Source: Escherichia coli
GTDB taxonomy: Bacteria; Pseudomonadota; Gammaproteobacteria; Enterobacterales; Enterobacteriaceae
Assembly: GCF_003334815.1 (NCBI RefSeq)
Contig: NZ_QOWO01000079.1
DNA length: 3,892 bases
Strand: one strand, 5' to 3'
Below, one piece after another: positions 843-1,099 of the stretch. The position numbers and the translations under genes are program-made. Within the stretch, counting starts at the first letter, position 1, and every line of letters starts with the position of its first letter. The notes beneath the pieces were generated by a model that was not told where the DNA came from, made no database searches, and saw only the letters and a program-made list of their open reading frames with translations.

Positions 843-902
843 CAGCAGAAAGCCCCTGGAGATTTTTTTATCAATCAACCAAGGGCTCTACTGTAATGCT
901 TC
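843..902 (-). ncRNA. pndB: Candidate Sok/PndB antisense RNA (~60 nt) complementary to the mok translation-initiation region
   Basis: Minus-strand perfect -10 TATAAT (plus coords 909-914) places the start near 901-902. The transcript would cover the mok ATG (896-898) and its SD (881-885). A 9-bp stem (879-887 with 851-859, including one G-U pair) is followed by a U-rich tract (CUUUCUGCUGU). Boundaries are approximate. Confidence 0.5.
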
Positions 903-1099
903 GACAACATTATAGTAGCCCGATAACCGCCGTAAGGCAATGGAGGGGCTATGATGCCACAGCGAACGTTTTTAATGATGTTAATCGTCATCTGTGTGAC
1001 GATTCTGTGTTTTGTCTGGATGGTGAGGGATTCGCTTTGCGTACTCCGGCTCCAGCAGGGAAACACAGTGCTTGTGGCAACGTTAGCCTACGAAGTTAA
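896..1099 (+). CDS. pndC: Mok/PndC-like overlapping reading frame (translational coupler for the toxin gene)
   Basis: ORF in a different frame that overlaps almost the whole toxin gene, as in hok/mok loci. ATG at 896 gives 67 aa, with AAGGG 10 nt upstream. The longer six-frame ORF from 815 would start only ~16 nt into the transcript and is less likely. Confidence 0.5.
   Translation: MLRQHYSSPITAVRQWRGYDATANVFNDVNRHLCDDSVFCLDGEGFALRTPAPAGKHSACGNVSLRS
909..940 (-). promoter_or_regulatory. Candidate sok/pndB promoter
   Basis: Perfect TATAAT on the minus strand (909-914). The only TTG-containing -35 candidate (TTGCCT, 935-940) is 20 bp away, which is suboptimal spacing. Confidence 0.4.

Follow-up and report, generated by a model that had tools for sequence, protein, structure and literature searches.

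The pndBCA locus is a classic plasmid-addiction system, in which PndB keeps the plasmid-encoded PndA killer peptide off. In the pnd locus of R483, a small minus-strand RNA has reportedly been described before in the primary literature. For the pndBCA locus of IncI1 plasmids, pndB has been identified as the antisense antitoxin (PMC5330492, PMC7602700, PMC4147584). A short-lived antisense RNA, a stable mRNA, cleavage by RNase III and killing of segregants are known for the pnd locus of R483 (PMC4147584) as well as for hok of R1 (PMC1635323). The Sok RNA of R1 has a published length of 64 nt with a 5' tail of 11 nt, and its promoter is called strong (PMC1635323). Because pndB serves to cure IncI1 resistance plasmids (PMC5330492), accurate coordinates of this gene are useful. 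Here, we analysed a pnd locus found in a 3,892-nt stretch of Escherichia coli DNA (referred to as the window).

A complete pndBCA locus

Positions 843-940 of the window, read on the minus strand, are almost certainly the pndB gene of an IncI1 pndBCA post-segregational killing locus. The preliminary description of this DNA had proposed an antitoxin RNA of the Sok/PndB type, which was correct: in a comparison with plasmid records, window positions 700-1180 were 100% identical to the pndBCA region of the IncI1 plasmid ColIb-P9 (NC_002122). The same segment was matched by 1,941 plasmid records, 1,894 of them conjugative, and 775 matched it at 99% identity or more. In ColIb-P9 the matching segment sits between trbA and excA, and the sole gene annotated within it encodes a Hok/Gef family protein at the position equivalent to pndA; pndB is left unannotated in the RefSeq records. 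The identity to ColIb-P9, a HOK_GEF match, the coordinates of PndC, a match to Rfam family RF01794 and the pairing of the mRNA ends together establish that the window holds a complete pndBCA, the pnd member of the hok/sok type I toxin-antitoxin family. At the level of sequence, pndB displays every defining feature of the hok/sok family that was examined.

The pndB of the window is base for base the known gene, neither a new member nor a variant, and with pndBCA already a classic system the discovery value is small. The practical gain is a corrected annotation of pndB for IncI1 plasmids, in strand, in promoter register and in extent (about 63 nt, 843-905). Taken as a whole, the locus is very probably best explained by a pndB gene with a TTGCCT-17-TACTAT promoter that starts transcription at about G905 and yields a 63-nt PndB.

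The pndA mRNA and its target loop

The pndA toxin gene (954-1106, plus strand) encodes 50 aa and matches Pfam HOK_GEF (PF01848, E = 8.7e-12); the NCBIfam Hok-family models match PndA below their cut-offs. An additional in-frame ATG is present at 951. Opposite the antisense gene there is thus an ORF for a Hok/Gef membrane toxin of about 50 aa, as in the rest of the family. The pndC gene, equivalent to mok, occupies 896-1099 on the plus strand, in the frame of the ORF at 815-1099. According to the pESBL annotation, PndC starts 55 nt upstream of a 51-codon PndA and ends 7 nt earlier (PMC4288162), positions that map to 896-1099 in the window. Both the pndC ATG (896-898) and its Shine-Dalgarno sequence AGGG (882-885) lie inside the predicted PndB footprint (843-905), so that the window has the overlapping upstream frame that serves as the antisense target in this family.

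Pairing of the tac and fbi elements at the two ends is typical of hok mRNAs. From the RF01794 match and a minimum free energy (MFE) fold, the pndA mRNA is placed at 799-1175 on the plus strand, its 3' end being approximate. In the MFE structure of 799-1180 (z = -7.9), tac (799-811) pairs with fbi (about 1157-1169), with GGGCGC (799-804) facing GCGCCC (1164-1169), and both the end pairing and the conserved leader fold of the family are present. A putative pndA -10 element, TAGAAT (787-792, plus strand), lies 7 nt upstream of the mRNA 5' end at G799; it was read from the sequence by analogy to R1, where the hok -10 is TATGAT (PMC9841398).

The full-mRNA fold and the RF01794 consensus structure both contain a PndB target hairpin at 889-917 of the plus strand, made of a stem (889-898 with 908-917) and a loop at 899-907, CUUCGACAA. 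The pndC AUG is at the top of its 5' arm. The loop carries UUCG at 900-903, a YUNR-type motif as expected of a target loop in this family, and this UUCG occupies the same alignment columns as CUAG in R1. The predicted 5' tail of PndB, GUCGAAGCAUUA, is complementary to loop nucleotides 899-905 and to the pndC AUG. Its first bases from G905, GUCG, are complementary to C902-C905 (CGAC) on the 3' side of the loop UU, which parallels the pairing of GACU with AGUC in R1; a transcript starting at 902 would lose three of these four contacts. A U-turn model of loop recognition has been proposed for hok (Franch et al. 1999, as cited in PMC1635323), and by analogy the UUCG loop may act as a U-turn for the 5' end of PndB.

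Predicted ends and length of PndB

The predicted PndB RNA is 63 nt long and runs on the minus strand from G905 to a U-rich tract (905 to 843), both ends being placed by homology with R1 Sok. The anti-Sok peptide nucleic acid PNA-1, TATGTCTAGTC, is described as complementary to the 11-nt 5' tail of Sok (PMC1635323), and because of this complementarity (Table 1 of the same paper) the Sok 5' end can be read as GACUAGACAUA. The G at which Sok starts is 7 nt past TATCCT in R1 and falls in the same alignment column as G905 of the window, which is 7 nt past TACTAT. One and the same pair of alignment columns then gives 64 nt in R1 and 63 nt in the window. Overlaps of 87.3% and 14.3% have been reported for a pndB target (PMC3562002); these percentages fit only a target of 63 nt, as back-calculated from 55/63 = 87.3% and 9/63 = 14.3%. 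The supplements of Canals 2019 contained no pnd entries. The exact ends of PndB, as well as the choice of its -10 hexamer, are thus those suggested by homology with the mapped Sok of R1.

In the preliminary description the RNA was about 60 nt long, covered the start codon and Shine-Dalgarno sequence of the mok-like frame and extended over roughly 843-902. This geometry was confirmed, as a transcript predicted to start at about 902-905 is antisense to both the pndC ATG and AGGG. The 3' side of the proposed interval also stands, but the best model, 843-905, is 3 nt longer at the 5' end.

The pndB promoter

On the minus strand the promoter region reads, in order, TTGCCT (940-935), TACGGCGGTTATCGGGC, TACTATAAT (917-909), GTTG and then TCGAAGCATTACAG onwards. 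Two overlapping -10-like hexamers are embedded in TACTATAAT: TACTAT (912-917), located 17 bp from TTGCCT, and TATAAT (909-914), located 20 bp from it. The preliminary description had pointed out a minus-strand TATAAT at 909-914 with TTGCCT 20 bp away. Both elements are where it placed them (TTGCCT at 935-940, spacer at 915-934). Its conclusion that the -35 was poorly spaced and the promoter strength unclear is probably wrong, however, as it overlooked TACTAT, 17 bp from TTGCCT. The TATAAT is in itself at chance level: it occurs once in the window, where 0.88 copies are expected, and 117 of 200 shuffled sequences contained at least one. The case for the promoter therefore rests on homology and not on the hexamer.

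We aligned 15 hok-family loci on the antisense strand, each located by its RF01794 match, from IncI1, IncK2/Z, IncI-gamma/K1, R1-type hok/sok, an IncF copy and plasmids of Providencia, Photobacterium and Vibrio. The TTG of the pndB -35 aligned with that of the R1 Sok -35, TTGCGC, and of four other hok-family lineages, and TTGCCT was retained in almost all toxin-bearing metagenomic pnd copies. In all six lineages aligned, an xAxxxT hexamer was found 17-18 bp past the conserved TTG: at 17 bp, TACTAT (pnd), TATCCT (R1), TAAAAT (L013), TAGTAT (L014) and CACAAT (L015), and at 18 bp, TACAAT (L016). In the register 3 bp further downstream, a -10-like hexamer was present only in the pnd clade, R1 having CCTGAT there. 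The window thus has the layout of a predicted antisense promoter of the hok/sok family, a -35 TTG, a spacer of 17-18 bp and an xAxxxT hexamer, all within the leader. An automatic MAFFT alignment with R1 set TATAAT against TATCCT by means of a sliding 2-nt gap and was rejected. The alignment anchored on the -35 TTG and on the AGCC/GGCT block was preferred because it places no gap between the two promoter hexamers and is consistent with the alignment to the Rfam model.

A spacing of 17 bp between -35 and -10 is optimal, and the functional range is 16-18 bp. Of the 12 consensus positions, TTGCCT-17-TACTAT has 8 and TTGCGC-17-TATCCT of R1 Sok has 7. As the pndB pair is closer to the consensus than a promoter that has been called strong, a weak or mis-spaced -35 needs no explaining, and the puzzle of the badly spaced -35 is most likely an artefact of choosing the best-looking hexamer. 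From the conserved register, TACTAT with a start at G905 is likely to be the main pndB promoter, and TATAAT can be viewed as a possible secondary -10, which by its overlap might compete with TACTAT or provide an additional start at G902. A consensus scan of the window for promoters and terminators made no call on the minus strand, but the same scan missed the experimentally established promoter and terminator of R1 Sok, therefore this negative says nothing about pndB.

The most serious competing explanation is that TATAAT (914-909) is the functional -10, with a start at about G902 and a PndB of about 60 nt bearing a 9-nt tail. Such a promoter would have essentially no -35, TTGCCT being 20 bp off, or else a weak one, CTTACG, at 16 bp; a mixed version would have both registers firing, giving two 5' isoforms. 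TATAAT is a perfect match to the consensus -10, and G902, 7 nt past it, is a suitable start base. A spacer of 20 bp nevertheless exceeds the functional 16-18 bp, the bases upstream (CTAC) lack the TG of an extended -10, and no other hok-family lineage aligned had a -10-like hexamer in this register. Moreover, a start at 902 would drop the complementarity to G903-C905, the loop bases that are paired by the Sok 5' end in R1, would leave a tail of 9 nt against 11 nt in Sok and, if the 3' end is unchanged, would make an RNA of 60 nt, where PMC3562002 implies a pndB target of 63 nt. We consider it unlikely that TATAAT takes the place of TACTAT as the functional -10, and about equally unlikely that it is used at all, be it alone or alongside TACTAT.

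To look at natural variation, we scanned metagenomes with the pattern CGGGC-N9-GTTGT-N4-GCATTACAG, in which the nine -10 positions were left free. TACTATAAT was invariant in 110 of 110 metagenomic pnd-type copies, so that natural variation cannot separate the two registers. TATAAT itself is therefore kept in each of these copies, including toxin-less relics with a degenerate -35 (TGGCGT), which speaks for its use; the bases of TACTATAAT are, however, additionally constrained by the stem of the target hairpin and by pndC codons. One pnd-type variant, L005, has AACTATAAT instead: the T at -12 of TACTAT is lost, leaving AACTAT, and TATAAT is kept. This is a further point for TATAAT, but we gave it little weight as evidence because the 5' leader and the 3' end of L005 are replaced and its Rfam score, 57.5, is below the gathering score.

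A related and rather improbable reading is that, in the pnd clade alone, TACTATAAT serves as a -10 in both registers and makes two PndB isoforms. In that case, a 63-nt form from G905 would have the full loop complementarity, and a 60-nt form from G902, which is just as doubtful, would lack the first three recognition nucleotides and, again at the same low odds, bind more slowly. If this were true, antitoxin level or kinetics would be tuned differently from Sok, and pndB could stay expressed where the -35 has decayed, for instance in toxin-less relics. Our preferred reading remains a single main promoter, TTGCCT-17-TACTAT.

Loop alleles and toxin-less copies

The four central nucleotides of the recognition loop (window 899-903; PndB nucleotides 3-7) are the variable spot of the otherwise near-invariant PndB. 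Over the loci L002-L012 and L018-L115, the alleles of the toxin-bearing metagenomic copies, given on the PndB strand, were CTAG (50 copies), TGAG (22), CGAA (14, the allele of the window), TCAT (6) and CGAT (3). These changes also alter codons 2-3 of pndC. Two minor alleles (AUGA and AUCG, 9/95 toxin-bearing metagenomic copies) have no YUNR in this register, hence the YUNR feature is not universal in the pnd clade. The loop alleles may set which PndB neutralises which pndA mRNA, and would then decide which plasmids a given PndB can neutralise. On each of two metagenomic contigs, a pair of pnd loci that look intact lies 721 bp apart, the two differing in loop allele (L038, 3961-4713; L045, 2347-3099). 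The allele pairs of the two-locus contigs are CGAT with TCAT and CGAT with TGAG, which fits the idea that the loop sets specificity.

In many I-complex plasmids the intact locus is accompanied, usually at a distance of about 968 bp, by a second pnd copy, a relic without the toxin. It was seen in ColIb-P9 (L001, about 5100-5260), L020, L024, L032, L047, L059, L062, L075, L090 and others. The relic keeps the leader, TACTATAAT and a PndB-like hairpin, has a degenerate -35 (TGGCGT) and lacks a hok ORF. Of 15 copies of the relic, 14 have a CTAG loop, regardless of the allele of the neighbouring locus. No such relic is present in the window, where an IS66-like element is found instead.

Insertion sequences around the locus

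At its two ends (1-137 and 3756-3892) the window carries inverted copies, perfect over 137 bp, of one end of an IS3-family element; they begin TGAACCGCCCCGGG. On the left, trbA is interrupted at 138 by this sequence, and on the right the IS66 tnpC is interrupted at 3755. Among plasmids, LT985321 (ECOR 3) is the closest: it matches 138-3892 at 100% and yet has an intact trbA. The left junction therefore reflects either an assembly fold-back or a second copy of the IS that is specific to this source. A decayed IS66-like element occupies 1570-3755 on the plus strand. Of its genes, tnpA is intact (283.8 bits), the reading frame of tnpB extends to 169 aa where the profile has 90 positions, and tnpC is broken into two parts, 2588-3277 and 3258-3758, and cut short by the IS3 end. 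Between this element and the pnd locus, a conserved hypothetical ORF of 83 aa (1178-1429, minus strand; WP_001291965 in ColIb-P9) converges on pndA; it had no NCBIfam match. The stop codon of this ORF (1178-1180) is just beyond the fbi element of the pndA mRNA (about 1157-1169), and a 3' overlap of the two transcripts is possible.

Such surroundings could suggest that the pnd locus is an inactive relic in an IS-ridden segment: inverted IS copies close the window on both sides, trbA is truncated at 138, the IS66 tnpB and tnpC are frameshifted or truncated, and toxin-less pnd relics do exist elsewhere. We regard this as highly unlikely, since the segment 700-1180, with both promoters, the full mRNA, pndC, pndA and pndB, is 100% identical to ColIb-P9 and many conjugative plasmids, and the IS junctions (138 and about 1440 or beyond) do not touch the locus.

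The hairpin and its strand

Following the 5' tail (894-905, 12 nt), which is predicted to be a single-stranded recognition element and is unpaired in the MFE fold of every pnd-type locus, PndB would form a stem-loop at 843-893 on the minus strand, as indicated by predicted folds and covariation. In the predicted fold it comprises a lower stem of 7 bp (893-887 with 849-843), a GC core of 8 bp (GCCCUUGG with CCAGGGGC; 886-879 with 859-852) and an upper stem of 4 bp (876-873 with 864-861), and it includes the U-rich 3' tail (851-843). On the minus strand the hairpin is followed by UUUCUGCUG, a U-tract that is short for a classical intrinsic terminator, which counts against the model. Versions of 60-71 nt have predicted fold energies between -26.5 and -29.8 kcal/mol (z = -5.0 to -6.6), which none of 200 shuffled sequences matched. 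The strong hairpin with a U-rich tract announced in the preliminary description is thus present, with the qualification that its core has 8 bp, plus the lower and upper stems, where 9 bp had been counted. All 14 toxin-bearing loci fold as a tail of 12-14 nt followed by a hairpin, and by its predicted fold the RNA of the window has the family layout of about 60-65 nt, a 5' tail, a stable stem-loop and a U-rich 3' end.

To discriminate between the two strands, covariation was analysed on 11 distinct family sequences with an 11-pair consensus structure. Of 117 cells, 113 held standard pairs on the antisense strand (96.6%) against 90 on the sense strand (76.9%), because 23 pairs that are G.U on the antisense strand turn into A.C mismatches on the sense strand. 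Six pairs showed double-sided, compensatory changes, with a covariation score that 0 of 500 shuffles reached, and sliding the partners by one column lowered pairing to 59-68%. The antisense fold was also 3-14 kcal/mol more stable than its sense complement in 14 of 14 toxin-bearing loci, one toxin-deleted copy being the exception. Since pairing, the G.U pattern and fold energy all favour it, these comparisons indicate that the hairpin is selected on the antisense strand.

It is accordingly hardly credible that no functional antisense RNA exists and that the structured leader of the pndA mRNA on the plus strand gives rise to the minus-strand hexamers and hairpin as by-products: the same bases do form hairpins in the sense mRNA and consensus scans call neither promoter nor terminator, but the hairpin is better on the antisense strand by all the measures above, the promoter hexamers are kept at fixed spacing across otherwise diverged lineages, the scan also misses the proven promoter and terminator of R1 Sok, and pndB has been reported as a functional antitoxin (PMC5330492, PMC4147584, PMC7602700).

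What RF01794 describes

The Rfam family RF01794, named 'sok antitoxin (CssrC)', matched the window over its full length at 799-956 on the plus strand with 131.7 bits, the gathering score being 59. On the minus strand, the strand of the antisense RNA, the window had no Rfam match at E <= 1. In the window, as in each of the 15 other loci (L002-L016), it was the toxin-sense strand that this model of 157 positions matched, and its match ends at the toxin AUG. Because all 16 loci match on the toxin-sense strand, RF01794 describes the hok/pndA mRNA leader, not the antisense RNA of about 63-64 nt, and its failure on the antisense strand reflects the model rather than the locus. An annotation based on RF01794 would put 'sok' on the wrong strand and give it the wrong length.

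Proposed mode of action

We propose that a constitutive sigma-70 promoter, TTGCCT (940-935), 17 bp and TACTAT (917-912), would start transcription at about G905. Its product would be the 63-nt PndB, running from 905 to 843, in which 12 single-stranded nt at the 5' end precede a long stem-loop and a U-rich 3' end. The tail would pair with the UUCG loop (899-907) of the 3'-processed, refolded pndA mRNA, and pairing would then extend across the pndC start codon (896-898) and the Shine-Dalgarno sequence. Translation of pndC would be blocked and, through translational coupling, so would the synthesis of PndA; the duplex between PndB and the pndA mRNA would then be cut by RNase III. Because PndB would be unstable while the pndA mRNA is stable, plasmid-free cells would lose PndB first and die. 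For the window, RNA instability, RNase III cleavage and killing are carried over by analogy from the published hok and pnd literature.

Comparison with known systems

The gene of the window is the same as the pndB of pndBCA in the IncI1/IncB plasmids R483, R64, ColIb-P9 and pESBL. With ColIb-P9 it shares the position next to trbA, PndA and PndC are the same reading frames, and there is no difference within the locus. The surroundings differ: trbA of the window is interrupted by the IS3-family copy, and the site of the toxin-less pnd relic of ColIb-P9 is occupied by the IS66-like element.

The likeness to hok/sok of R1 is in the architecture. As with Sok, the antisense gene lies inside the leader of the toxin mRNA, has a -35 TTG with a 17-bp spacer and would start 7 nt past the -10, giving an RNA of about 64 nt with a 5' tail of 11-12 nt, a stem-loop and a U-rich end. 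A YUNR-type target loop adjoins the start of mok or pndC, and the mRNA ends pair through tac and fbi. The sequences, in contrast, have diverged: where R1 has TATCCT as its -10, the window has TACTAT, overlapped by TATAAT, and hok-type plasmid copies are only distantly similar to PndA, with about 38-45% amino-acid identity by tblastn. The recognition loop also differs, CUAG in R1 and UUCG in the window, thus cross-reaction between the R1 and pnd systems is not expected.
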